64,000 nt of DNA, taken from assembly GCA_965263035.1 (NCBI GenBank), contig OZ253580.1, positions 2,976,001-3,040,000 of the forward strand. Direction: 5' to 3'. Every line of letters starts with the position of its first letter. The first letter of the stretch is position 1. The position numbers were made by a program, and so were the translations under genes. Under the pieces are notes generated by a model, which made no database searches, was not told where the DNA came from, and worked only from the letters and a program-made list of their open reading frames with translations. Positions 4,804-20,443 of the stretch are shown here, piece by piece. Origin of the DNA: Acidobacteriota bacterium. GTDB lineage: Bacteria > Acidobacteriota > UBA6911 > RPQK01 > JAJDTT01.

Positions 4804-5616
4804 ATGATGGAACGGGACGGGGAGTTGAGCGAGCGTCGGCAGTGCCGGTTGCTGGGGATCAGTCGATCCTCGCTGTATTACACGCCAAAGGGGGAGAGCC
4901 CGGAGAACCTGGTGCTGATGCGCCGCCTGGACGAGTTGTCTCTCCAGTATCCGTTCTACGGTAGCCGACAGATGAGGCGGCACCTGCGCCGCGAAGGGGT
5001 CCGAGTGGGTCGGCACCGGATTCGGCGTTTGATGCGGCTCCTGGGGCTGAAGACCATCTACCCGAAGCCGAGAACCAGCACGGCCCGGTCCGAACACCGT
5101 GTCTACCCCTATCTGCTTCGGGGCCTAAAGATCGAAGAGCCCCATCAGGTTTGGTGCGCGGACATCATGTATATCCCGGTCTACAAAGGGTATTTGTACC
5201 TGGTGTCGGTGATGGACTGGGCCAGTCGGTACGTACTGTCGTGGCGGTTGTCCAACACCCTGGACAGCGAGTTCTGTGTCGAGGCTCTGGAAAGGGCGCT
5301 CTCTCAAGGGGTCCCGACGATCTTCAACACGGATCAGGGGGCGCAGTTCACGAGCCGGGTGTTCACCGAGCGGGTGCAGGCGTCCGGGGCGCGGTGCTCG
5401 ATGGATGGTCGCGGTCGTTGCCTGGACAACGTGTTCATCGAACGGCTGTGGCGGTCGCTGAAGTACGAAGCCGTGTACTTGCGGGAACTGGCGGACGGAT
5501 TCGAGGCGTCACGGGTGATCGGGGAGTGGATGGAGTTCTACAACGGGGAGCGGCCGCACTCGGCGCTGGGTGGGCGGATCCCAGGGGAAGCTCACCACGG
5601 GAGGGAGGCAGCGTGA
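4804..5616 (+). CDS. IS3 transposase OrfB (DDE integrase core)
   Basis: WCADIMYI, FNTDQGAQFTS, DNVFIERLWRSLKYE, YNGERPHSAL. Confidence 0.95.
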   Translation: MMERDGELSERRQCRLLGISRSSLYYTPKGESPENLVLMRRLDELSLQYPFYGSRQMRRHLRREGVRVGRHRIRRLMRLLGLKTIYPKPRTSTARSEHRVYPYLLRGLKIEEPHQVWCADIMYIPVYKGYLYLVSVMDWASRYVLSWRLSNTLDSEFCVEALERALSQGVPTIFNTDQGAQFTSRVFTERVQASGARCSMDGRGRCLDNVFIERLWRSLKYEAVYLRELADGFEASRVIGEWMEFYNGERPHSALGGRIPGEAHHGREAA

Positions 5617-8828: not shown

Positions 8829-9250
8829 TGGACTTTTCGGACCTGCCGGCTCTCAACGCCGGCCTCAATGCCCTCAGCGGCTCTTTGCTGGGGATCGGGT
8901 ACTTGCTGATTCGCCGGGGCCGGGTGGGGGCACACAAGGTCTTCATGGTGGCTGCGGTGGCCGTTTCGACCCTGTTTCTGGTTTCCTACGTCGTCTACCA
9001 CTATCACGCCGGGTCCACGCCGTTTCCCGGGACGGGCTGGATTCGCACCCTGTACCTGTTGATTCTGGTGACCCACGCCACCCTGGCGGCGGCAGTGGTT
9101 CCCCTGGCGGCCGTCACGCTGGCCCGGGCGTGGCGGGAGGATTTTGGATCTCACCGGCGCATCGCACGCTGGACGCTGCCCATCTGGTTCTACGTCTCCG
9201 TCACCGGCGTGATCATCTACGTCATGCTCTATCAGCTCTATGCCCAATAA
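8828..9250 (+). CDS. DUF420 family membrane protein
   Basis: LPALNAGLN...HKVFM...FLVSYVVYH...HRRIARWTLPIWFYVSVTGVIIY; TGATG coupling with upstream gene. Confidence 0.92.
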   Translation: MDFSDLPALNAGLNALSGSLLGIGYLLIRRGRVGAHKVFMVAAVAVSTLFLVSYVVYHYHAGSTPFPGTGWIRTLYLLILVTHATLAAAVVPLAAVTLARAWREDFGSHRRIARWTLPIWFYVSVTGVIIYVMLYQLYAQ

Positions 9251-10112
9251 GGGATCCGGTGCTCGCAAAGTTTCCCTGAAGACCCAGCTTCTCGTGTTCG
9301 GCTCCCTGTTGGCGTTCGTCCTGGTTCCGGGAATGTTCTGGCACGATGTCTGGTTCGGGCGCGCCTTGGACGACGCCGAGCTGGAGGAATACCTCAACGA
9401 CGAAACCAGTCCCAGGCGAATGCAACAAGGGTTGGCCCAATTGGGAGAAAGGATTCGCGGAGGGGACCCGGAAGCCCGGCGCTGGTTCCCGAGAGTGATG
9501 GAGCTGGCGGGGCATGACCATCCGGAGATCAGGAACCTCTCCGCCTGGCTCATGGGACAGGACGCCTCAGCGGAGGCCTTCCAGCCGCGGCTGGCGGGGC
9601 TTCTGATGGACTCCAATCCCCTGGTCCGCCGGAACGCCGCCCTTTCCCTGGTCCGTTTCGGCGACGCACGGGGACGGCCCGAGTTGCGATCCATGCTCCT
9701 GCCCTGGGTGGTGAAGAGTCCTCAGGCGGGACGGCTCCGGCTGCTGGTCGAGCCGGACGACGAGGTCCGAAGCGGTTCCCCGGTGGCGGAGATCGAACAG
9801 GGGGAGGTGTCCGTGGCGGTCCAGGTCCCCGTTTCCGGGAAGGCGGCGAATCTGGCCGAGGACGGACAGAGGGTCGATGCGGGCGCCGAATTGATGGTGG
9901 TGTTGCCGGATCCGGTGCATCTCTGGGAGGCGCTCCGGGCCCTCTATCTGGTTGGAACGGAGGAGGACCTGGAGTTGATCGAACCCTATCTGGGCTCGGA
10001 CGAGGCCAACGAAAGCATTCGCCGCCAGGCGCACCTGACTCGTGAAGCCATCCTCAAAATAGAAAACCAGCGCGAAGAGAAGATTTCAGGAAACGGGGCG
10101 GCATCTCAGTAA
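9240..10112 (+). CDS. Membrane-anchored HEAT-repeat protein with biotinyl/lipoyl-like insert
   Basis: TM then WHDVWFGRAL; HEAT units (PEIRNLSAWLMG, PLVRRNAALSL); VKSPQAG...VQVPVSG lipoyl-fold segment. Confidence 0.8.
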   Translation: MPNKGSGARKVSLKTQLLVFGSLLAFVLVPGMFWHDVWFGRALDDAELEEYLNDETSPRRMQQGLAQLGERIRGGDPEARRWFPRVMELAGHDHPEIRNLSAWLMGQDASAEAFQPRLAGLLMDSNPLVRRNAALSLVRFGDARGRPELRSMLLPWVVKSPQAGRLRLLVEPDDEVRSGSPVAEIEQGEVSVAVQVPVSGKAANLAEDGQRVDAGAELMVVLPDPVHLWEALRALYLVGTEEDLELIEPYLGSDEANESIRRQAHLTREAILKIENQREEKISGNGAASQ

Positions 10113-10447
10113 GGCAGCGACCCGTGGCTGCCTTCGTAGCCCTTGATCGCCACCATGTCGATGGCGTCCCAGGGACATCCGTCCAGGAAGGTCCCCTCGG
10201 GGCCCTTGCTGGTGCAGAGCTTGCAGCCGATGCAGAGGAGAGGATCGACCTCGATCCGGCCGAAGGGCGGATGCTCGTCGTCCGGGATCCAGATCATGCA
10301 GTTCTCAATGGGGCAGTAATCCACGCAGGCAGGAGAGCCGGAGCAGCCGGTGCAGCAGTCGTTGATAATGGCAACCAGAGCCGGCTTCCGCTTCCGTTTG
10401 CCGTTCCGCTTGATGGTGCTGCGGTCTTTCAGAACGTCGACTTGCAT
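10106..10447 (-). CDS. 4Fe-4S dicluster ferredoxin
   Basis: CTGCSGSPACVDYCP and CIGCKLC...GCPWDAI. Confidence 0.9.
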   Translation of the reverse strand: MQVDVLKDRSTIKRNGKRKRKPALVAIINDCCTGCSGSPACVDYCPIENCMIWIPDDEHPPFGRIEVDPLLCIGCKLCTSKGPEGTFLDGCPWDAIDMVAIKGYEGSHGSLPY

Positions 10448-10462
10448 CCCAGAATCATTATC

Positions 10463-10927
10463 TCATTTGGCCCGGCGGCGTTTCAATGGCCGACGGCGTT
10501 TCAACGGCCGGCGGCGTTTCACCTTGGGCCTGGGCTTGGGAGGAGGCGCAACGTCCGGACCGAACCAGGAGACCTCGTAGTCGGGGAATTCTGCCTTGAA
10601 AGCCTGGGCCAGGGATTCCCGGTCCGGATCCGCGCCATACGCCCCATTGGCGCCAAACAGAGTGAGAGTGCCGTAGTAGGGATTGCGGGCCACGGACCCT
10701 CCGCCCTGGACCGTGAACTCTCCTCCCGCCTCCAGGAAACCCGCGTCCTCCAGATCCTGCCTGGTCCAGCGGATCAGGGCCTCTTCGCTGTCCACGCCGG
10801 AACTGATGTAGTTGGAGCCGCGAGCGATCCTCTTGGCCGCCCCCTCCAACTGCAGCGAGAAGACGAGATACTGGAAGACGACACCGTCGCCCAGCAATTC
10901 GATGTCCCGGATCTCCTCCAGCGCCAT
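10463..10927 (-). CDS. Janus/Ocnus (PHPT1-like) fold protein with basic repetitive C-terminal tail
   Basis: Collinear motifs vs recalled human PHPT1: DGVVFQY~DGVFKY, KRIARG~KEIVRG, GGGSV~GGGRI, FGANGAYG~YGYSMAYG, KAEFPDYEVSW~KAKYPDYEVTW. Confidence 0.75.
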   Translation of the reverse strand: MALEEIRDIELLGDGVVFQYLVFSLQLEGAAKRIARGSNYISSGVDSEEALIRWTRQDLEDAGFLEAGGEFTVQGGGSVARNPYYGTLTLFGANGAYGADPDRESLAQAFKAEFPDYEVSWFGPDVAPPPKPRPKVKRRRPLKRRRPLKRRRAK

Positions 10928-10938
10928 CCCCAATAGTC

Positions 10939-11094
10939 CTAAATGGCGAGCATCGCGATCGCCATGCCGGCCAGGAGCAACAGGACGCCACCCCGGTGTG
11001 CGAGGGTGGCGAGGCGACCGGTTCCGCTCGACCAGCCCACCACGGTCAGGATCAACGTGCCCGCCGACAAGAGTCCCAAACTCAACCAGATCAC
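10939..11094 (-). CDS. Small two-TM membrane protein
   Basis: Two hydrophobic helices; GTG 11094 with GGAG upstream preferred over TTG 11124, which lies too close to the -10 box. Confidence 0.6.
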   Translation of the reverse strand: MIWLSLGLLSAGTLILTVVGWSSGTGRLATLAHRGGVLLLLAGMAIAMLAI

Positions 11095-11126
11095 TTCGGT
11101 CTTTCTCCCGCTCTGTCCGTCCAATT

Positions 11127-11155
11127 GATATAGAGCTTTCCGCCTAAATTGTCAA
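11127..11155 (-). promoter_or_regulatory. Sigma70-type promoter
   Basis: Minus strand TTGACA-17 nt-TATATC. Confidence 0.75.
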
Positions 11156-11224
11156 AAAAAGCTCCCGTTTAGGACGCCCCCCCGTGGCGGCGCGGGGCCG
11201 GTACCGGAGAAACACCGGAGCGGC

Positions 11225-11473
11225 CTAGACGGCCTGCTTGGCCCGGGGCCTCCGGCGAACGGCGCGGGCATGAACCTTGCTCCGTCCCGAGAGTTTCGGT
11301 TGAACGACATTGGTGTCCTGCTGATATTGGGTCTTCATCGCCGCGTAGATCTGATTCCAGCAGGTGGAGCAGGTGTCCAGGTGCATGAGAAATTCCAGCT
11401 TGTCATCCAGGTCAAGGGTGTCACCCAGGAAGCCTGAGATCCGCTTCCGGTCGCACCCGTCGAAGGTGATCAT
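11225..11473 (-). CDS. Stand-alone zf-HC2/ZAS-type zinc-finger small protein
   Basis: C...GFLGDTL...FLMHLDTCSTCW (HxxxCxxC); AGGAG RBS. Confidence 0.75.
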   Translation of the reverse strand: MITFDGCDRKRISGFLGDTLDLDDKLEFLMHLDTCSTCWNQIYAAMKTQYQQDTNVVQPKLSGRSKVHARAVRRRPRAKQAV

Positions 11474-11642
11474 GATCGTCTCCTAGTTTTGTTGGTGAAA
11501 TTCAGCCGAGAATCGACGTGTGTTCTGAGGTTCAACAACAGAGACGGCACTCGGACCGAAACGGTTTCAAACATTTCGACTCCGGACCCCGGCGCCGGGG
11601 CAAATTGCAACCCGAAAACGCGGTCTGATATCGTGAGCGGCC

Positions 11643-12203
11643 ATGATCAATGCCACACAGATCCGAAAGGGAATGATCATCATCCATCAGAACGAGCCCC
11701 ACCGGGTCCGAGAGTCCCAGCACCGGGCACCTGGCAAGGGCGCTGCCTTCGTTCGGGTCCTGCTGAAGAATCTGCGGACCGGAGCGTCCTACGAGCACCG
11801 TTACGCCTCGGGAGACGCTGTGAACCGGGCGACTCTGGATCATCGAGAGATGGAGTTCCTGTACCGGGACGGGAATGTCTGCCATTTCATGGACACTGAG
11901 AACTACGAGCAGATCGGATTGGACCGCGAAGCGTTGGCCGAAAGCTGGGACTATCTCAAGGAAGGACAGACCATCACGGTGGAATTCTTCGACGGCAACC
12001 CCATCGGGGCGAAGCTTCCCGCCACCGTCGAGTTGAAGGTGGTGGAAACGGAAGCCGAGTTGAAGGGAGCCACCGCCAGCAACTCGCCGAAGCCGGCCAG
12101 GCTGGAGACCGGCGTCACGGTCCAGGTGCCGCCATTCATCCGGGAGGGAGAGTTGATCCGCGTCGACCCCTCCCAAGGCCGCTACATCGAACGCGCCCGC
12201 TGA
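11643..12203 (+). CDS. efp: Elongation factor P
   Basis: HRAPGKGAAFVR, FMDTENYEQ, KPARLETG...VPPFIREGE..VD. Confidence 0.97.
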   Translation: MINATQIRKGMIIIHQNEPHRVRESQHRAPGKGAAFVRVLLKNLRTGASYEHRYASGDAVNRATLDHREMEFLYRDGNVCHFMDTENYEQIGLDREALAESWDYLKEGQTITVEFFDGNPIGAKLPATVELKVVETEAELKGATASNSPKPARLETGVTVQVPPFIREGELIRVDPSQGRYIERAR

Positions 12204-12337: not shown

Positions 12338-15256
12338 GTGGGAGAGGTTGTCATCCGTCATGGTCCCGCCGCGGCCGACCGGTCGCGGCGGCTGCTTGAG
12401 GAGCGGCTTCGGGAGTCCCATGGCCGGGCGCCCGAGTTCCTCTATGTCACCGCCTCCCGCTGGCGCAAGCACCAGTTGGCGCGGACGTTTCTGAAGGCGA
12501 ACCCCCGCACCTTCGAAATCCCGATCCTCACGTTTCAGGACCTGATCGGCGCCCTCTTCCGGGAGCTCGGATCCGGCCGGAGAGTGGTCTCGGAGACCGG
12601 CAGGAGATGTCTGCTGGAGGCGGTCCTGGAGGCGCAGCTCCAGGCGCCCGGCGGGAACGGCGAAGAGCAACCGGTGTCCCTTTTCGAGGCCGAGGCGTGG
12701 GTGTCGATGCTCAAGGGCCGGGGCCTGACCAGCGAACCTCTGATTCGTCTTTATCTCCAGCGGGAGGACCGTGACCAGGAGGAAGCGAGCCGGCTGATCC
12801 GGATCTTCCTTGCCTACCAGGAAAAGCTGGAGGTGCAAGGTTGGGAAGACGCGGCGGGAGTTCGCATTCGTCTCTATGAGGCTCTATTGACCGGTTCCGT
12901 GGACTGCCGCAAACGTTTTCCCGGGCTCGGAGAGATCCTCTTCGAGGGGCTCATCGCCCGAACGCCGGTGGAGAGGGGACTCGTGCGCCTGCTGGCGGAT
13001 CAGGTCGAGGAGGCCGTTTTCTCGTTGGATCTGGAGTCGCCCGACGAAGAAACGCGCCCGTTCACGCTTCCGGTGTCCTCAGTAAGAGAATGCTGGGAGG
13101 GAACGAACCCCACCTGGTGTTTCCAAGCGGCGGCGGCGGCGCCCGCTCAAGTCCGCTTTTCCCGGCCGCCGCACCGTGAAGCCGAGATCCGGATGGTGGC
13201 CCAGGAAATTCAGGAGCTCAAGACTCGGGAGCCTCTACTCCGGTGGTCCCAGGTGGGTGTCGTCTGCCCCCGCGACGAGAGCTACCTGCTGCTCTTGAGG
13301 GAGGTCTTCTCCCGGCTGCACATCTCCTGGTTGAACCTGCATGGAGACTCCGTCCGGTCGACGAACGCCTTCAGAGTTCTGATCGGGTACGTCGAGCTGT
13401 TGTGGCGCGACTTCCGGCGGGACGACCTGTTCGACTTCCTCTCCTCGCCCTGGATCGATCCGGATGGTATCTCATCGGATCGGGTTCGGCTCCTGGAGCA
13501 GCTGGCCTGTCATGGAGGCTTCAGGGGCGGCGGAGAATCGTGGACCCAATCGTTCCCGGGATGGATCGAGCAAAAGCGGGCCGAGTCTCCCGAAGAACCG
13601 GGTTCGGTCCCGGAGGGCTGCGCAGAGGTTTTTCGGGATTTGATCCGGAAGCTCCAAGCCGATTCGGCGCGGCTCCGGAAGGCCGGGGAGTGGGTCTCCC
13701 TGTTGGCCGGCCGGTTGGGCCCGCTCCTTCGGGCGCCGGCCGGGCCGGGAAACTGGGGGCGGTCCGAGGGCCAGGCGCTGGCCCGGATCCAAGGGAGTCT
13801 CCAGGAGGCCGCCCTGCTCTGGGGAGATTGCCCTATCAGTCTCGCGCGCTTCCGCTCCTTGCTCCACCGGCAGATTTCCCGGATCCGAATTTCTCCCTCG
13901 CTGGACCGGGAAGCCGTCGTGGTTGGTGGCGCCCATCACTTGCAGGAGTGCGAGTTCCGGCATCTCTTCTGGCTCGATTTCTCAGAGGGGCGGATTCCTT
14001 CCCGGAGGAAGATGCCGGTTTCCGGAACCGGATCCCGGATGGCGGAGGAACTCTCGATTTTTCACGGAATCCGCTGCCGGAGTCGAGAAGCGGTGTTGCT
14101 GTCCTCGCCCCGGCACGCCGGCAACGGTCCGGTGTTGCCCAGCCATGTTCTGGAATACATGGACCACCGGGAAGAGGTCTGGCCCCACGTGGACGCACGG
14201 CTGGGGCCGGCGCAGGATTCGGCGAGAGACGAGCACGTCCGCCGGGGAGTCCGGGCGCTGTCCCTGAGGCGGTCGGGTCACCCCAGCGCCTTTGCCGGAA
14301 TCGTCACCCGACCCGAAGTCCTGGAGCGGATGCGCCGGCGCCACCATCCGGCCGGCGTGGATCTCTCTCCGACTCGATTGGAGGAGTATGGACGGTGTGG
14401 ATTCCGGTACTTCGTCCGTAGGATGCTCGGGGCCAAACCGCCGTCTCCGGCGGATACGGAACTGCTGCGGGAACAGCACCGGCTGGTTCGCAGGATGCTG
14501 TCCCGCTATTGTCAGGACGCCGCCGCGAGCCGCCCCCCGGATCTCGAAGACGGACGCCGTCGGATGGCGGGCATCGGCCGGGAAGAGCTGGAGCAACTGA
14601 GACAGACTTTGCCTGCAGTCGGCGGGCTGGTCTGGGAGCAGTTGCAAACTTGGCTCATGGATGGACTGGAAGACTCGAACCCGCCGGGGTTGCTGATGCG
14701 TTTCCTGGAGGAGGACCGGAAGCGGGAAGCCGACTCGGAGGTCCATGCCGTGGAGACCTCCCTGGGGCCCCTGGTTCTGGGCCGTCTTCCGCACGGCACC
14801 AGATCGGGTGACGGGCAGGCGCCGCCGGTTCGCCTGAAGGGTCTTCTGGACCGGATCGACCGGACTCCCGACGGTTTTCAGCTGGTGTCCTACGTGGCGG
14901 GACACCGGAATCGTCTGCGCCGGATCAAGGACGGCTGGGGTTTTCGCCTCCCGTTGTCCCTGCTTTTGGTGCAGTCCTTCGTGGGCAAGGCGGCGTCGGG
15001 AGGCTTCTACCATGTCGGTCTGCCCGGGTACCTGCAGTGGCGGCCATTGCGGAAACCGGGGAGCAGAGGGTCGGAGGCGAACCTGGAACAACTGATGGAT
15101 CGCTATCGGGAGGAGGCATTGCTGGCCGCCCGAAGGATTTATTCCGGAACCTTTCCCGTGACCACGCACAAGCCCGCGGCGGCCGGTTGCGCCCGCTGCG
15201 GCTACAGTCGAGTCTGCCGGCGGGAGGAGGCACAGGCCGGAGGGACGTACGTATGA
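12338..15256 (+). CDS. AddB/RexB-like recombination subunit with PD-(D/E)XK-type C-terminal domain
   Basis: Degenerate helicase-like body, LSPTRLEEYGRCGFRYF, GLLDRID, C-terminal CARCGYSRVC; directly upstream of AddA-like gene. Confidence 0.8.
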   Translation: MGEVVIRHGPAAADRSRRLLEERLRESHGRAPEFLYVTASRWRKHQLARTFLKANPRTFEIPILTFQDLIGALFRELGSGRRVVSETGRRCLLEAVLEAQLQAPGGNGEEQPVSLFEAEAWVSMLKGRGLTSEPLIRLYLQREDRDQEEASRLIRIFLAYQEKLEVQGWEDAAGVRIRLYEALLTGSVDCRKRFPGLGEILFEGLIARTPVERGLVRLLADQVEEAVFSLDLESPDEETRPFTLPVSSVRECWEGTNPTWCFQAAAAAPAQVRFSRPPHREAEIRMVAQEIQELKTREPLLRWSQVGVVCPRDESYLLLLREVFSRLHISWLNLHGDSVRSTNAFRVLIGYVELLWRDFRRDDLFDFLSSPWIDPDGISSDRVRLLEQLACHGGFRGGGESWTQSFPGWIEQKRAESPEEPGSVPEGCAEVFRDLIRKLQADSARLRKAGEWVSLLAGRLGPLLRAPAGPGNWGRSEGQALARIQGSLQEAALLWGDCPISLARFRSLLHRQISRIRISPSLDREAVVVGGAHHLQECEFRHLFWLDFSEGRIPSRRKMPVSGTGSRMAEELSIFHGIRCRSREAVLLSSPRHAGNGPVLPSHVLEYMDHREEVWPHVDARLGPAQDSARDEHVRRGVRALSLRRSGHPSAFAGIVTRPEVLERMRRRHHPAGVDLSPTRLEEYGRCGFRYFVRRMLGAKPPSPADTELLREQHRLVRRMLSRYCQDAAASRPPDLEDGRRRMAGIGREELEQLRQTLPAVGGLVWEQLQTWLMDGLEDSNPPGLLMRFLEEDRKREADSEVHAVETSLGPLVLGRLPHGTRSGDGQAPPVRLKGLLDRIDRTPDGFQLVSYVAGHRNRLRRIKDGWGFRLPLSLLLVQSFVGKAASGGFYHVGLPGYLQWRPLRKPGSRGSEANLEQLMDRYREEALLAARRIYSGTFPVTTHKPAAAGCARCGYSRVCRREEAQAGGTYV

Positions 15257-18200
15257 CTCCGGCCGTCTCCGCATCCGTACCCCACAGTGCCGCCTCGAGC
15301 CCTTCCCGAAACCGGGAAGCCGACCCGGGGACGAGATACGACGAGTCCCAGCGCCAGGCTCTGGGCCTCTCCTCCCACATGGTGGTTTCCGCGGCGGCCG
15401 GATCCGGCAAGACGCGGGTTCTGGTGGGCCGCTACCTGCGGATCCTGGAGCGTTACGGGCACCAGCCTCACCAGATCGTCGCCATCACCTTCACGGAAGA
15501 AGCGGCTTCCCAAATGGCCGCGCGCATCCGGGAAGCGGTTCTGGCCAGACTTTCTTCAGCTTCGTCCTCAGAGACGAAACCTGCCTGGGAGCAGGCGCTG
15601 GAGGCCTTGGGAGACGCTCCCATCACCACCCTGCACGGCTTCTGCCTGAGGATTCTCAGGGAACACGGCAGCCGGATCGGCCTCGATCCCGGCTTCAGCG
15701 TCCTGAACGGAGGGGATCAGCGGCTGCTGCTGGATCGGTGTCTCCAGGAGCTGCTCGACTCCTGGTCTCGCACCCGGCTTCCCGCGTTCGCGACGCTGCT
15801 CGGATATCTGCGGTATCGGAGAATCGAAGGAGTCCTGACCGGGCTGGTCCAGAGACGGAATCACCTGACGGCGCGCTCGTCTCTTGACCAGACTGAGATC
15901 CTGCGCCGCCTCTATCGGCGGGAAACGGCTCACTTCCTGACGCGGTCGGATCTGTGGGGCCGGTTGCTGCGCCTCCTGGAGCGGGTGCCGAAACGGCTCT
16001 TGATCCGGAACGATTCCTTTGCCCGAAAGTGCGTCCGGCAGCGAGAGCTCTTCGGAATGCGCCCCACGCTGGACGAGATGGAGTTCCTGGCTCGATTCCA
16101 GGAATCTCTGGGCCTGGTGGCTCGGCCTTCCAAAGCCTGGACGGGCTGGGAACATCGGGCCGACCTGGTGCAGTGCTGGAAGGCTCTCAAAGTGGAATAT
16201 GGCCGTTATCCGCTGCAGGTCCCCCCATCCGATGAATCCGGTTTCGACGGCGACGCCCACTTCGAGAAGGCGACGCTGGCTCTGGAGGAACTGGCCGGAC
16301 TGGCGCTGGCTCGCTATCGGTCGGAGAAGGGACAGGACTCGCTGCTGGACTTCGAAGACCTCCTGGCACTGGCTCGTTCCTTGGTCCGTTTGCCGGAAGT
16401 TCGAAGGATATTGCGGAGCCGGCATCGATTTTTCCTGGTGGACGAATTTCAGGACACCAACCGCCTGCAGTGGGAGATCCTCAAGCCGCTGCTGGGTCCC
16501 GACTCGAATTTCTTCGCCGTCGGCGACGACAAGCAGTCCATCTACCGCTTCCGGGATGCGGACGTCTCGGTATTTCGAGCGGTTCGGAAGTGGGTCCGGA
16601 AGCGGGGACGCGTCGTCGAGCTGCGCCGGAACTACCGCTCGCATTCCAGCTTGGTCCGTTTCAGCAACCGGGTCTTTCGGAACCTGATGCAATCGGGGTT
16701 GGCCTATGAGGCGGTTCATCAGGAGATGACTCCCGTCCGGCAAGAGTCCGCCATGGCGGACCCGGGCGTCCGGGGACTGTTCTACGAGAAGCTGCCGCAA
16801 GGGTACGACTCCGAGGCCGAAGTGGCGGCGGAGGCGGCCAAGGGCTTGCTGTCGGAAGGGTTCGAGGCCCGAGAGATCGCGGTCCTGCTCCGGAATCGCA
16901 CCCGGCTTCAGGAATTCGAGAACGCGTTCTGCCGCTGGGGTCTGCCCTTTGCCGCCCGGGGGGGCAATCGGCTTCACGATCAACCCGAGATCGTGGACCT
17001 GGCGAATCTACTTGGCTTTCTGGATGATCCCGGAAGGGACCTGGAATTGCTGGGGGTCCTCCGGAGTCCCCTGTTCAGTTTCTCGGACGAGGATCTGCTG
17101 CTCCTTTCGTTGCAGGAGGGGTGCGGGATCTGGGAAAAGCTTCAGTCCGCGGAGTCTCCCGCGGAGGCCTTGCCCCGGCATTGGATCTTCGCGCGGGAGT
17201 CGTTGGGCGATTGGCTCCAGGTACCGTATTCGAGTTCGGCGGCAATCCTGGCCCAGGCGATAGCGGAGACCGGCTATGATGAGGTGATGGCGGCCGGCGG
17301 CCGGGGAGATCTGGCCCGGACCAGTATCCACCGGCTGCTGGAACTGGCCCGGAGATTCGAGATCGGCCATGGACCCTCCCGGCGTCCCTTTCTCCGCTAC
17401 CTGGAGGGGCTCCGCCGGCTCGGAGCCCACGAAGGGGGATTCGCGGAAGGCGGATCGGACCGGATTCGGGTCCACACCATCCACGGGGCCAAGGGCCTGC
17501 AATATCCGGCGGTCATTCTTCCCGATCTGGGCGCGCCGCTCCTGGCCGGGATGAACGATCCTTTCTTCGGCCTGAGGTTGGGGAGGGAAAAGGGCGGGTA
17601 TTGTTTCGGCCTCTCGATCCGAGATCCGCAGCGGGGGTACCAGGAATACCGGCATCCGCAGTACGAGATGTTGCGGCGGCTGGATCGGTATCGCCAGACG
17701 GCCGAGGAGAAACGGCTCCTCTACGTGGCCCTGACCCGGGCCCGCGAGAGGTTGGTCCTGATCGGGAGGAAGTCGGGGCGTCCATCCTACGCCCGCTGGT
17801 TGCAGGAAGCGGACGCAGAGACCTCCATGGCCCCGTTGACCCTCCGGCCTCTCGACCGCTCCCGCAAATCGGCCGGGCGGGACTCCGGGATAGACGAGCC
17901 TGTTGCCGCCGTCCCGTCTCCGATTCCCACCAAAGACGCGGGAGCGGCGGAACGGAGACGCCGTCCCGATTCGACCTCCGACGGTTGGAGCAAGACCACC
18001 TGGACACCGACCGAGATCGTCTCCTACTATCGATGCCCCCGGAGCTTCTTCCATTCCCGGGTGGAGGGACGGACGGAGACGCCGGCCTTGGGTTGGCGCG
18101 CGAGCCCGTCGGCGCTGGTGGGCTCGGCCGTGCACGAGCTGCTGGAGAATCCGGGCGCGCCGGGAAGTGAAGCGGAGATGGGACGTTTCCTGGACCGGTG

Positions 18201-18762
18201 GCGGGCGAGGCTTGACCCGGTCTACTCGGAGGTGGAGATTCGCCGGATGCGCCGCCGCATCGGGGAGAGCATCGAGGGTGTTCGGAAGAGCCGCCTCGCG
18301 GAGCGTCTCGCCTCCGCCCGGAGGGTCGTCAGTGAAAAGCGATTCCATCTGCTGGAGCAGGGGCGCCTGGTGACAGGGATCATCGACAAGCTCTTTCAGG
18401 AGAGAAACGGCCGCTGGGTGGTCGTGGACTTCAAGACGTCACCGTTGACCGCGCGTGACGGCGGCGAGGGGATCGTCAAGAGAAGTTATCGGCTTCAGGT
18501 GCAGCTTTATCTGTGGGCCGTGTCCCAGGTGCTGGACACCATGAATCTGGAGGGACACCTTTTGTTCACGGAGTCGGGCACTCTGGTTCCGGTGTCCTTC
18601 GACGCCGGCGTTTCGGCTCGATGCCGGGATCTGATCGGCGGTCTGCCCCGAACGCCGGGTCTGAACCAATTTCCCCGGACCCGGGTCTCCGAAACGTGTT
18701 CCGGATGCGGCTTCAAGACCGGGGGGGTGTGCCCGGGAGCGGCCGGCCCCGATCCGGATTGA
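15253..18762 (+). CDS. addA: AddA-like UvrD helicase/nuclease
   Basis: AAAGSGKT, VDEFQDTN, VGDDKQSIYRFR, TIHGAKGLQYP, YVALTRARE, GIIDKL...VVDFKT; ATGA overlap with upstream gene. Confidence 0.9.
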   Translation: MTPAVSASVPHSAASSPSRNREADPGTRYDESQRQALGLSSHMVVSAAAGSGKTRVLVGRYLRILERYGHQPHQIVAITFTEEAASQMAARIREAVLARLSSASSSETKPAWEQALEALGDAPITTLHGFCLRILREHGSRIGLDPGFSVLNGGDQRLLLDRCLQELLDSWSRTRLPAFATLLGYLRYRRIEGVLTGLVQRRNHLTARSSLDQTEILRRLYRRETAHFLTRSDLWGRLLRLLERVPKRLLIRNDSFARKCVRQRELFGMRPTLDEMEFLARFQESLGLVARPSKAWTGWEHRADLVQCWKALKVEYGRYPLQVPPSDESGFDGDAHFEKATLALEELAGLALARYRSEKGQDSLLDFEDLLALARSLVRLPEVRRILRSRHRFFLVDEFQDTNRLQWEILKPLLGPDSNFFAVGDDKQSIYRFRDADVSVFRAVRKWVRKRGRVVELRRNYRSHSSLVRFSNRVFRNLMQSGLAYEAVHQEMTPVRQESAMADPGVRGLFYEKLPQGYDSEAEVAAEAAKGLLSEGFEAREIAVLLRNRTRLQEFENAFCRWGLPFAARGGNRLHDQPEIVDLANLLGFLDDPGRDLELLGVLRSPLFSFSDEDLLLLSLQEGCGIWEKLQSAESPAEALPRHWIFARESLGDWLQVPYSSSAAILAQAIAETGYDEVMAAGGRGDLARTSIHRLLELARRFEIGHGPSRRPFLRYLEGLRRLGAHEGGFAEGGSDRIRVHTIHGAKGLQYPAVILPDLGAPLLAGMNDPFFGLRLGREKGGYCFGLSIRDPQRGYQEYRHPQYEMLRRLDRYRQTAEEKRLLYVALTRARERLVLIGRKSGRPSYARWLQEADAETSMAPLTLRPLDRSRKSAGRDSGIDEPVAAVPSPIPTKDAGAAERRRRPDSTSDGWSKTTWTPTEIVSYYRCPRSFFHSRVEGRTETPALGWRASPSALVGSAVHELLENPGAPGSEAEMGRFLDRWRARLDPVYSEVEIRRMRRRIGESIEGVRKSRLAERLASARRVVSEKRFHLLEQGRLVTGIIDKLFQERNGRWVVVDFKTSPLTARDGGEGIVKRSYRLQVQLYLWAVSQVLDTMNLEGHLLFTESGTLVPVSFDAGVSARCRDLIGGLPRTPGLNQFPRTRVSETCSGCGFKTGGVCPGAAGPDPD

Positions 18763-18775
18763 AGAGCGAGCGGTG

Positions 18776-20443
18776 ATGCAACGCGAACAGTTGGAGGTGG
18801 ACGTTCTCTTTGTCGGTGCGGGACCGGCTTGCTTGAGTGCGGCGTTCCACCTGTCGCGCCTGGTGAGCCGGCATGACCGTGAGGTGGAGGCAGGGGTCCG
18901 GCCGGGTCCTCCGCTGGGAGAGCAGCTTCTGCTGCTGGTGGAGAAGGGCAAGGAGATCGGATCCCATGCCCTGAGCGGCGCCATCGTGGACCCCAGGGCC
19001 TTTCGGGATCTGCTTCAGGATCTCCCCGGTACGGAACCGCCGCTGGACGCTCCGGTGATAAAAGAGGACGTCCTGTTCCTCACCAAAAGGAGGCATTTCC
19101 GGCTTCCCGTGATCCCGCCGCCGTTGCACAACGAAGGCAACCACGTGGCCTCGCTGGGAAAGCTGGTGAAGTGGCTGGCCGCCCTCTGCCAGGACCATGG
19201 GGTTGAGGTCTACCCCGAATTCCCGGCGGTCAAGCTGCTCCGGGACGGGAAACGTGTGGTGGGAGCCCGGATGGGGGACCGGGGAAGGGACGCCAAGGGG
19301 CAGCCCAGATCGCACTTCGAGCATGGGACCGACGTACTGGCCAAGATCACGGTCCTGGGCGAAGGTCCCAGAGGCACGTTGACCCGCCAGGCGGAAGAGC
19401 ATCTTGGACTGGACAGTGACAGTGGCCCGCAACTCTATTCGCTGGGCGTGAAGGAGGTGTGGCGGGTCCCGGGAATCGAGCCGGGACGGGTCTACCACAC
19501 CTTCGGCTACCCGACCGGAACCCGGGAGTTCGGGGGAGGTTTCATCTACACCCTGACGCGGGAGCAGCTCCATGTGGGTTTCGTCGTGGGGCTGGACTCG
19601 CGGGATCCGCGGGAAGATGCCCACCGGCTGTTGCAGGAATACAAACAACACCCCTTCGTGAGGCGCCTCCTTGCAGGAGGCCGGGTGGTCTCCTACGGCG
19701 CCAAGGCCATTCCGGAGGGGGGCTACCACTCCATGCCGCGGCTCTACGCCGACGGACTGCTCCTGGTGGGAGATTCGGCCGGTTTCCTCAACCCCGCGCG
19801 TCTGAAGGGGATCCACTTGGCCATCGAATCGGGAATGATGGCGGCCGAGGCGGCATTTGAGGCTCTGGTGGCGCGCGATTGTTCCGCCGCCCGGCTAAAG
19901 CGCTATGCCGATTTGTTCGAAGCCAGCGAGGCCAGGAAGGAGCTCCACTCAGCCCGCAACTTCCGGCAGTCCTTCCAGCGAGGTTTCTGGACCGGTCTTC
20001 TCTACAACGGCGTGCAGACTCTGACCGGCTTGGGCTGGGGAGGCGTCTGGAAGACCGTGCCGGGCCACGAGCGCATGGCCAAGATGGACGGTTCCGCGGC
20101 CACCGAAGAGGCGCCGTTTCCCGGGGACGGCGAGCTCACCTTCGACAAGCTCTCAGACGTCTACCTCTCGGACACGGCTCACGAAGAGGATCAGCCGAGC
20201 CACCTTGAGATCTTGGACCTGGAGATCTGTCGAGACCGGTGCCGGCAGGAATATGGCAACCCCTGCCAGCATTTCTGCCCGGCGGGTGTCTACGAGATGG
20301 TCCAGGAAGAGGATCGGCCCAGGCTCCAGGTCAACTTCACCAATTGCGTCCACTGCAAGACCTGCGACATCCTGGATCCCTACCAGGTGATCCTGTGGAC
20401 TCCCCCCGAAGGGGGCGGCGGACCCGACTACAAGAACATGTGA
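18776..20443 (+). CDS. Electron transfer flavoprotein-quinone oxidoreductase
   Basis: VGAGPA FAD motif, IPEGGY, VGDSAGF...KGIHLAI.SG, C-terminal CPAGVYE...NCVHCKTCDI.DP. Confidence 0.95.
   Translation: MQREQLEVDVLFVGAGPACLSAAFHLSRLVSRHDREVEAGVRPGPPLGEQLLLLVEKGKEIGSHALSGAIVDPRAFRDLLQDLPGTEPPLDAPVIKEDVLFLTKRRHFRLPVIPPPLHNEGNHVASLGKLVKWLAALCQDHGVEVYPEFPAVKLLRDGKRVVGARMGDRGRDAKGQPRSHFEHGTDVLAKITVLGEGPRGTLTRQAEEHLGLDSDSGPQLYSLGVKEVWRVPGIEPGRVYHTFGYPTGTREFGGGFIYTLTREQLHVGFVVGLDSRDPREDAHRLLQEYKQHPFVRRLLAGGRVVSYGAKAIPEGGYHSMPRLYADGLLLVGDSAGFLNPARLKGIHLAIESGMMAAEAAFEALVARDCSAARLKRYADLFEASEARKELHSARNFRQSFQRGFWTGLLYNGVQTLTGLGWGGVWKTVPGHERMAKMDGSAATEEAPFPGDGELTFDKLSDVYLSDTAHEEDQPSHLEILDLEICRDRCRQEYGNPCQHFCPAGVYEMVQEEDRPRLQVNFTNCVHCKTCDILDPYQVILWTPPEGGGGPDYKNM

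Follow-up and report, generated by a model that had tools for sequence, protein, structure and literature searches.

We analysed a 64,000-nucleotide stretch of an Acidobacteriota genome (GenBank assembly GCA_965263035.1, contig OZ253580.1, positions 2,976,001 to 3,040,000 of the forward strand; hereafter the window, numbered from its first letter). Within it, a minus-strand gene at 10463..10927 encodes a protein of 154 amino acids that resembles human phosphohistidine phosphatase PHPT1 and the Janus/Ocnus proteins and whose translation holds no histidine at all, as the original prediction had stated. This Ocnus-like gene stands third in a tight run of four genes on the minus strand, which encode in order a zf-HC2 protein, a small hydrophobic protein, the Ocnus-like protein and a ferredoxin. 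A six-frame listing of open reading frames (ORFs) gives it as 10463-10933 on the minus strand, where the coding part occupies 10466-10927 and the stop codon 10463-10465. Since the homologues begin with MALEE, the start was placed at the ATG at 10927, in agreement with the coordinates of the original prediction; as read from the sequence, an AGGA lies about 9 nucleotides 5' of this ATG and shares letters with the stop codon of the small ORF before it. Residue numbers refer to the protein starting at this ATG and are two higher in the 156-residue form starting at TTG, which served as query for the single-sequence Pfam search, for phmmer against the PDB and for the first AlphaFold 2 (AF2) model. 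The ORF is a real gene under purifying selection, with ratios of non-synonymous to synonymous substitution (dN/dS) of 0.10-0.25 against seven congeners, and it occurs once in the 6.2-Mb source genome. An entry of the protein collection, P0005 (135 amino acids), is identical over its first 66 residues and from there on continues in the +1 frame of this DNA; it is a gene call with a frameshift, made on another copy of the Ocnus-like sequence, and not a separate protein.

The protein has the PHPT1/Janus fold over its whole domain. Pfam Ocnus (PF05005) matched the single sequence over profile positions 2-108 of 108 with an E-value of 4.5e-4 and 20.7 bits, just under the gathering cut-off of 23 bits, and orthologues from the same order reach 52.6 bits; all 24 relatives of our alignment A3 match the family at E 0.01 or better. 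Searching the PDB with phmmer and the single sequence returned three PHPT1 sequences (E 3.6e-4 to 5.4e-4) as the sole matches below E 0.4, and a profile of 37 family members found PHPT1 alone, again as three sequences, at E 1.7e-10 to 5.3e-10. Weak sequence matches in the PDB to mS58, tectonin and a sugar-binding protein (E 0.4-4) were gone in the profile and structure searches, and an NCBIfam scan of the protein gave no match. The five motifs that had been proposed as collinear with PHPT1 are all present in the translation, in a protein whose identity to PHPT1 is about 23-26%. The first AF2 model, built from five close sequences, had a mean predicted local distance difference test (pLDDT) of 78.6 and was good in one of five models; with this model the top five Foldseek matches were all PHPT1 (E 5e-11 to 8.5e-10, template modelling score by target 0.72-0.84), followed by a match at E 0.057. 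In a second AF2 run with a 24-row alignment all five models agreed (pLDDT 77-81, about 90 for the domain in model 2), the least confident part of the domain being residues 41-50 with a pLDDT of 69. A VIA-align search of 48,161 chains gave PHPT1 (2nmm_A) with a Z-score of 15.9 and a root-mean-square deviation of 1.9 Å over 111 of 113 residues, the next Z-score being 5.0. By pLDDT, VIA-align and Foldseek the folded domain comprises residues 1 to about 124 (10556..10927, minus strand). With the 14-kDa human PHPT1 (PDB 2hw4, 2nmm, 2ai6) it shares the alpha/beta fold and the order of its elements, together with the arginine of the VRG motif (Arg45 in PHPT1, R36 here), the GGG loop, the YG loop and the C-terminal FPDYEVSW strand.

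The residues on which PHPT1 catalysis depends have largely been replaced. Lys21, His53, Ala54, Arg78, Ser94 and Ala96 are named as key residues of PHPT1, with Lys21 and Arg78 anchoring the substrate (PMC4817053); Ser94 has its hydroxyl at the phosphate site; His53 is given as the general base, the H53A variant is described as catalytically inactive and His102 as likewise important (PMC11277029). HMMER alignments pair Arg45 with R36 and Lys21, Arg78 and Ser94 with Q19, S78 and N94, which bears out the Q, S and N first proposed for the latter three sites, and His102 pairs with R103 in the MAFFT alignment A3, via P0032. The counterpart of His53 depends on the aligner: MAFFT, via the histidine-bearing proteins P0031 and P0032, puts it at E48 and HMMER at residue 44, neither of which is histidine. 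Among 37 relatives, on which all conservation counts rest, the columns of residues 44-48 hold at most one histidine each, and position 78 is Ser in 27, Thr in nine and Ala in one, and never basic. The equivalents of His53 and Arg78 are lost in all members, and these losses therefore define the whole clade. At the Lys21 site (position 19) 26 of the 37 sequences carry Lys or Arg, and at the Ser94 site (position 94) 18 carry Ser; the source protein has Gln and Asn there. The losses of the Lys21 and Ser94 equivalents are particular to the source genus and a few others, with the source genus the most degenerate. Position 48 is Glu or Asp in 32 of 37 sequences and Ser, Ala, Val or Pro in the other five, position 49 is Glu, Asp or Gln in 32, and residue 44 is highly variable. 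Twelve columns are invariant, among them R36, G75-G77, N82, Y84, G92 and R103, the last in place of PHPT1 His102. The sole column with frequent histidine is 117 in the C-terminal strand (21/37), where both PHPT1 and the source protein have Tyr. Judged by these residues, the source protein lacks the catalytic features of the PHPT1 enzyme (His53, Lys21/Arg78 and Ser94). The active site had been called erased; this holds for the equivalents of His53 and Arg78, gone throughout the family, and does not hold for R36 and the GGG loop, which are invariant, nor for most relatives, which keep a basic residue at the Lys21 site and Ser at the Ser94 site.

The family is rare and confined to a narrow range of bacteria. 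A word-indexed protein search found five close relatives, and a profile search of 1.84 billion representative proteins gave 31 matches at E 1e-3 or better. Six of these were rejected as false positives matching on a Gly-rich stretch only, namely the FG-GAP repeat proteins P0027, P0028, P0029, P0030 and P0033 and the protein with NAPRTase_N repeats P0024, and true representative clusters number about 25. The histidine-bearing canonical forms P0031, P0032 and P0035 lie at the margin of this search. No fusion partner was seen among the profile matches, in a search that was not aimed at longer or shorter forms. Scanning one genome per species yielded 25 loci, all of them in metagenome-assembled genomes (MAGs) labelled Acidobacteriota, Aminicenantes or UBA6911 with the exception of a 2.6-kb contig that had been placed in a Dehalococcoidia bin. 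Of 401 genomes sampled evenly from the phylum 18 had the gene, all of them among the 27 sampled from the order of the source organism; none of the 374 Acidobacteriota genomes sampled outside that order had it. A PF05005 scan of the same sample matched 17 of the 401 genomes, 12 of them above the Pfam cut-off, and revealed no further, canonical copy. The ESM Atlas holds a 62-member cluster, mostly from Acidobacteriota, automatically named Janus/Ocnus domain protein, and one close relative carries a precomputed PF05005 tag; because automatic annotation already marks part of the cluster as Janus/Ocnus, the family label is not new. A literature search on PHPT1, Janus and Ocnus turned up no paper on bacterial members. 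The view of the original prediction that this is a rare prokaryotic member stands. As a separate observation, 53-62% of the sampled words of the 64-kb window were present in metatranscriptomes recorded as sponge metagenome (runs X7-X9 and X12), with contigs at least 99% alike in X7 and 95-99% alike or better in X8; these near-identical contigs imply that close relatives of the source organism live in sponge-associated communities.

P0031, a 113-residue protein from a Candidatus Parcubacteria MAG that forms a singleton cluster, belongs to the Ocnus family, is bacterial and bears histidine. Like the acidobacterial clade it has Ser at the Arg78 site and a YGAEPDRE motif with Arg at the His102 site; it differs in keeping a YHADI motif with the catalytic His and in having no C-terminal tail, and it may represent the bacterial ancestral state. 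The original prediction overstated the case in calling the acidobacterial protein informative about where the fold came from. SixA is a bacterial phosphohistidine phosphatase of an unrelated fold (histidine phosphatase superfamily); it turned up in none of the searches, none of which was aimed at it. Drosophila Janus-A, Janus-B and Ocnus and the other eukaryotic PF05005 members share the Pfam family with the acidobacterial proteins and differ in being eukaryotic. In the ESM Atlas feature search the janus-B and green-algal Ocnus clusters rank next after the acidobacterial cluster, with scores of 0.90. An iron-sulfur link for eukaryotic Janus/Ocnus proteins was not seen in the material examined. 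Ocnus is treated as a PHPT1 enzyme in recent work (PMC13602238), and the phosphatase role of the Janus proteins in Drosophila is described as ‘still unclear’ (PMC4817053).

The gene that follows, at 10106..10447 on the minus strand, encodes a 2x[4Fe-4S] ferredoxin of 113 amino acids, the predicted binding partner, and starts 15 nucleotides past the Ocnus-like stop. It was recognised through Pfam Fer4_7 (E 4.6e-6, 27.4 bits, cut-off 27) and related families, has two Cys motifs ending in CP, and keeps C32, C35, C41, C45, C50, C72, C75, C78 and C91 invariant in 24 orthologues; in NCBIfam it gave sub-threshold matches only and reached no equivalog. The ferredoxin lies directly downstream in 23 of the 23 species loci with enough sequence, two of the 25 contigs ending just past the Ocnus-like gene, and this arrangement holds down to an Ocnus-like identity of 36%. 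Across loci the ferredoxin is 67-96% identical, versus 36-94% for the Ocnus-like protein. Within the order, both genes are present in all 18 sampled genomes of families f1, f2, f5, f6 and f8 and both are missing from all nine of families f3, f4 and f7. The ferredoxin itself is widespread, with at least 1056 clusters in the protein collection and a presence in 40 of the 401 sampled genomes, and outside the order the slot upstream of it is empty or holds other genes. Since the ferredoxin occurs there without the Ocnus-like protein, the ferredoxin and the convergent HEAT-repeat protein described below form the older core, to which the Ocnus-like gene is an order-specific addition.

Two such other genes were seen upstream of the ferredoxin. 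In one acidobacterial family that has the ferredoxin and no Ocnus-like gene, a conserved ORF of 94-114 amino acids lies just upstream of it (L062:1922-2206, L063:1970-2254, L064:2079-2363 and L067:1933-2277, all on the minus strand); it has no Pfam match and may be an analogous ferredoxin partner. In another family the ORF directly upstream (L068:9-1079, L069:93-1223) resembles electron transfer flavoprotein (ETF):quinone oxidoreductase (ETF-QO), by eye only. A gene for ETF-QO also occurs in the window, at 18773-20443 and about 8 kb away (Pfam Fer4_ETF_QO and ETFQO_UQ-bd), and the association is a possible functional lead for the ferredoxin.

We then modelled the complex of Ocnus-like residues 1-128 with the ferredoxin and two 4Fe-4S clusters, supplying a 24-row alignment for each protein. 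The interaction prediction score from aligned errors (ipSAE) was 0.77 as the median of three runs, versus 0.10 for the best of three controls; in calibration, 58 of 80 solved complexes attained this mark, as did 2 of 110 mismatched pairs. The runs share at least 84% of contacts, and the pLDDT of the partner is at least 86. The predicted interface comprises residues 14-17, 19, 40-42, 44, 77-78, 80, 82-85, 89, 91-95 and 122-126 of the Ocnus-like protein and residues 27-30, 49, 52, 54-55, 57, 64, 66-71 and 106-112 of the ferredoxin, the latter flanking both Cys motifs. All three PHPT1 site positions whose alignment is secure (residues 19, 78 and 94) fall inside it, and it holds six of the 12 invariant residues versus 21 of the 116 others (Fisher p 0.019); the invariant R36 and R103 are not among the residues listed. 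On the ferredoxin side N29, E66 and L70 are invariant in sequences with the partner and identical in five, seven and five of 15 sequences without it, a weaker pattern than the co-variation criteria given below. We know of no solved structure in which a protein of the PHPT1 fold is bound to a ferredoxin, and a pass from model memory therefore seems unlikely.

Beyond the domain, residues 125-154 (10466..10555, minus strand) form a C-terminal tail with a pLDDT of 42-65 in its last blocks, which is probably disordered according to the models. Tandem Repeats Finder detected in it an 18-nucleotide tandem repeat (10472..10521, 2.8 copies, 90% matches) encoding PLKRRR units. The number of copies differs among congeners by whole units; the tail therefore lengthens and shortens by repeat slippage. 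In the source genus the tail is strongly basic (net charge +15), and across the family its net charge ranges from +18 to -11 and its length from 11 to 74 residues. This range of charge ruled out the basic tail as a nucleic-acid binder for the whole family; in the source genus nucleic-acid binding by the tail is possible. The domain is acidic, with a net charge of -3 to -15 across the family, in contrast to the basic PHPT1, to which the bacterial protein also adds the low-complexity tail of 30 residues and the ferredoxin operon context.

The first gene of the cluster (11225..11473, minus strand) encodes a zf-HC2 protein of 82 amino acids with an HxxxCxxC (ZAS-type) motif, matching PF13490 with E 3.4e-5 and 24.3 bits (cut-off 22.2) and having no match in NCBIfam. 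Its orthologues keep this motif and an N-terminal Cys, most of them also an HPHYY motif, and the gene is found upstream in 21 of the 25 loci. No sigma factor gene adjoining it was present in the ORF list and no transmembrane segment was found, and it looks like an orphan, soluble ZAS-type protein. The second gene (10939..11124, minus strand), taken from the ORF list, encodes a small hydrophobic protein of 61 (about 53-61) amino acids, probably with two transmembrane segments; no Pfam or NCBIfam family was found for it, and 24 of the 26 loci examined have a comparably hydrophobic small ORF in this gap. Convergent to the cluster, a plus-strand gene (9240..10112) encodes a membrane-anchored HEAT-repeat protein with a lipoyl/barrel-sandwich-like domain (Pfam HEAT_2 and Biotin_lipoyl), which adjoins the ferredoxin in most loci, also outside the order (L044 and L046). 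The efp gene lies upstream of the cluster and is divergent from it, and the neighbourhood of efp, an addB-like nuclease, ABC-2 and DUF420 genes is syntenic across the order. The AddB-like PD-(D/E)XK nuclease (972 amino acids) is followed by an AddA-like UvrD helicase-nuclease (1241 amino acids) at 12338-18762 of the window, and in most loci these two genes keep their synteny with the cluster. At 4804-5616 the window also contains an insertion sequence-type transposase with HTH_21 and rve integrase core domains.

Nine runs recorded as RNA hold the window or part of it, and the contigs of four were examined. Contigs of study P1 with no differences to the window cover 9900-11517/11522 and resume at 11652-11662; those of study P3 stop at 11529 and resume at 11677, and two of them (10211-10779 and 10400-10778) bridge the ferredoxin/Ocnus-like junction, so that this junction is bridged by RNA-library contigs of two studies. 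The contig ends mark the divergent intergenic region between the cluster and efp (11474..11642), of which 11564-11627 is uncovered in all four runs, a hint only. This region probably holds divergent promoters, for which the contig gap is a weak hint, and the data agree with transcription of the cluster beginning near 11520. A sigma-70 scan found no promoter match in 11474-11642. Over 9900-11800, scans for sigma-70 promoters and terminators gave no terminator and one promoter-like site, at 10486-10457 inside the Ocnus-like 3' end, which is a consensus match only.

Taken with the models, these results lead us to lean, a little beyond even, towards the Ocnus-like protein being a pseudophosphatase that now binds the co-encoded ferredoxin, as one of its subunits, with the face that once held the active site. 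The fold, the missing catalytic residues, purifying selection, the phyletic range and the gene order are observed; loss of activity, binding to the ferredoxin and any part in redox processes are inferred from them and from the models. The suggestion of the original prediction that this is a pseudophosphatase or ligand-binding adaptor fits and is hereby narrowed to one predicted partner. The PHPT1 scaffold is kept together with parts of the old pocket, namely Arg36 (PHPT1 Arg45), the GGG loop and the YG loop; with the general base His53 and Arg78 gone in every member, phosphohistidine hydrolysis has most likely been lost. The 2x[4Fe-4S] ferredoxin would then have this protein as its dedicated partner subunit and would dock on the former substrate-binding face via G15-V16, Q19, G77-S78, N82-P83-Y84 and F91-N94, so that the acidic domain would cover the ferredoxin surface beside both cluster-binding motifs and leave the lineage-variable disordered tail free. 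Both proteins belong to a conserved cluster of four genes that also encodes a ZAS-type zinc-finger protein and a small membrane protein, an arrangement that would be in keeping with a redox-linked module. The fuller evolutionary scenario, in which loss of the catalytic histidine from an ancestral phosphohistidine-phosphatase fold, within a single acidobacterial order, was accompanied by recruitment of the protein via its old substrate-binding cleft as an obligate accessory subunit of a [4Fe-4S] ferredoxin in a four-gene redox module, is put forward tentatively, with somewhat less than even expectation.

Several points weigh against a ferredoxin-bound pseudophosphatase. Binding is a prediction, and the ligands and supplied alignments depart from the conditions under which the score was calibrated. 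A search for ferredoxin positions with conservation of 90% or more where the partner is present and identity of 20% or less where it is absent gave four partner-discriminating positions (11, 20, 43 and 77). None of them lies in the predicted interface, which gives no support for co-evolution specific to it; the test carries little weight in either direction, because genomes with and without the partner are also clades. In the phylum sample 40 genomes bear the ferredoxin and 22 of them are without the Ocnus-like protein, so the ferredoxin does not need it. The joint absence in families f3, f4 and f7 includes the HEAT protein, which was not found in five of these nine genomes, and may reflect one or a few deletion events. 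The synteny is region-wide, and the adjacency of the Ocnus-like and ferredoxin genes is therefore partly inherited. RNA-library contigs cannot prove a single transcript either: a P1 contig runs on into the convergent plus-strand genes, so that it is no proof of one transcript and carry-over of DNA is possible. Finally, the loss of catalysis is read from the residues, and the acidic position 48 (32/37) could in principle act as a base.

Some of these points are shared by the reading that a non-catalytic PHPT1-fold protein binds something other than the ferredoxin, which would be a mere operon neighbour; candidates are a phosphorylated or anionic small ligand at Arg36, the GGG loop and Arg103, or nucleic acid or polyphosphate at the polybasic tail. 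The invariant R36 and R103 outside the predicted interface may serve such a ligand, the tail of the source genus with its PLKRRR repeats carries a charge of +15, and both the region-wide synteny, which weakens adjacency as evidence, and the ferredoxins lacking an Ocnus-like neighbour speak in its favour. However, the acidic domain differs from the large positive surface described around PHPT1 His53 (PMC11277029), the complex prediction passes its controls with invariant residues in the interface, and, as tail charge is not conserved, polyanion binding cannot be the common function of the family; we regard this reading as rather unlikely. Retained enzyme activity, as a hydrolase of P-N or P-O bonds that uses another general base (for example the acidic residue 48 or 49, where helix 1 begins) and acts on a substrate other than those of PHPT1, appears improbable. 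Such a base could be sought in the largely acidic positions 48 and 49 and in E48 standing opposite His53 in the alignment via P0031 and P0032, and R36, the GGG and YG loops and, in many relatives, the basic residue at the Lys21 site (26/37) and Ser at the Ser94 site (18/37) are kept. Yet position 48 is not invariant, HMMER places His53 opposite the highly variable residue 44 in a loop (41-50) of low pLDDT, position 78 is never basic, the source genus remains under purifying selection after losing the Lys21 and Ser94 equivalents too, and the ferredoxin is predicted to lie over the pocket face. A chance match, or an ORF that is no real gene, was suggested by the sub-threshold Pfam score of the single sequence and by the first AF2 run, confident in one model of five, and is refuted by the family profile finding PHPT1 alone at E 1.7e-10, the structural Z-score of 15.9, the agreement of all five models in the second run, the orthologues in 25 species genomes and the dN/dS values.

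The non-catalytic roles of the PHPT1 fold family are poorly understood. The ferredoxin is uncharacterised, widespread in Acidobacteriota and has lineage-specific upstream partners, and the pair formed with the Ocnus-like protein is small (154 and 113 amino acids) and easily testable, although it comes from uncultured organisms. A bacterial clade in which all members are without the catalytic histidine, whose scaffold is under selection and whose old active-site face is predicted to bind a specific co-encoded ferredoxin, offers a natural test case for the conversion of an enzyme pocket into a protein-protein interface. If the ferredoxin-bound pseudophosphatase holds true, it would be the first pseudoenzyme of this fold for which a protein partner is identified, as well as the first tie between the PHPT1 fold and iron-sulfur electron transfer.

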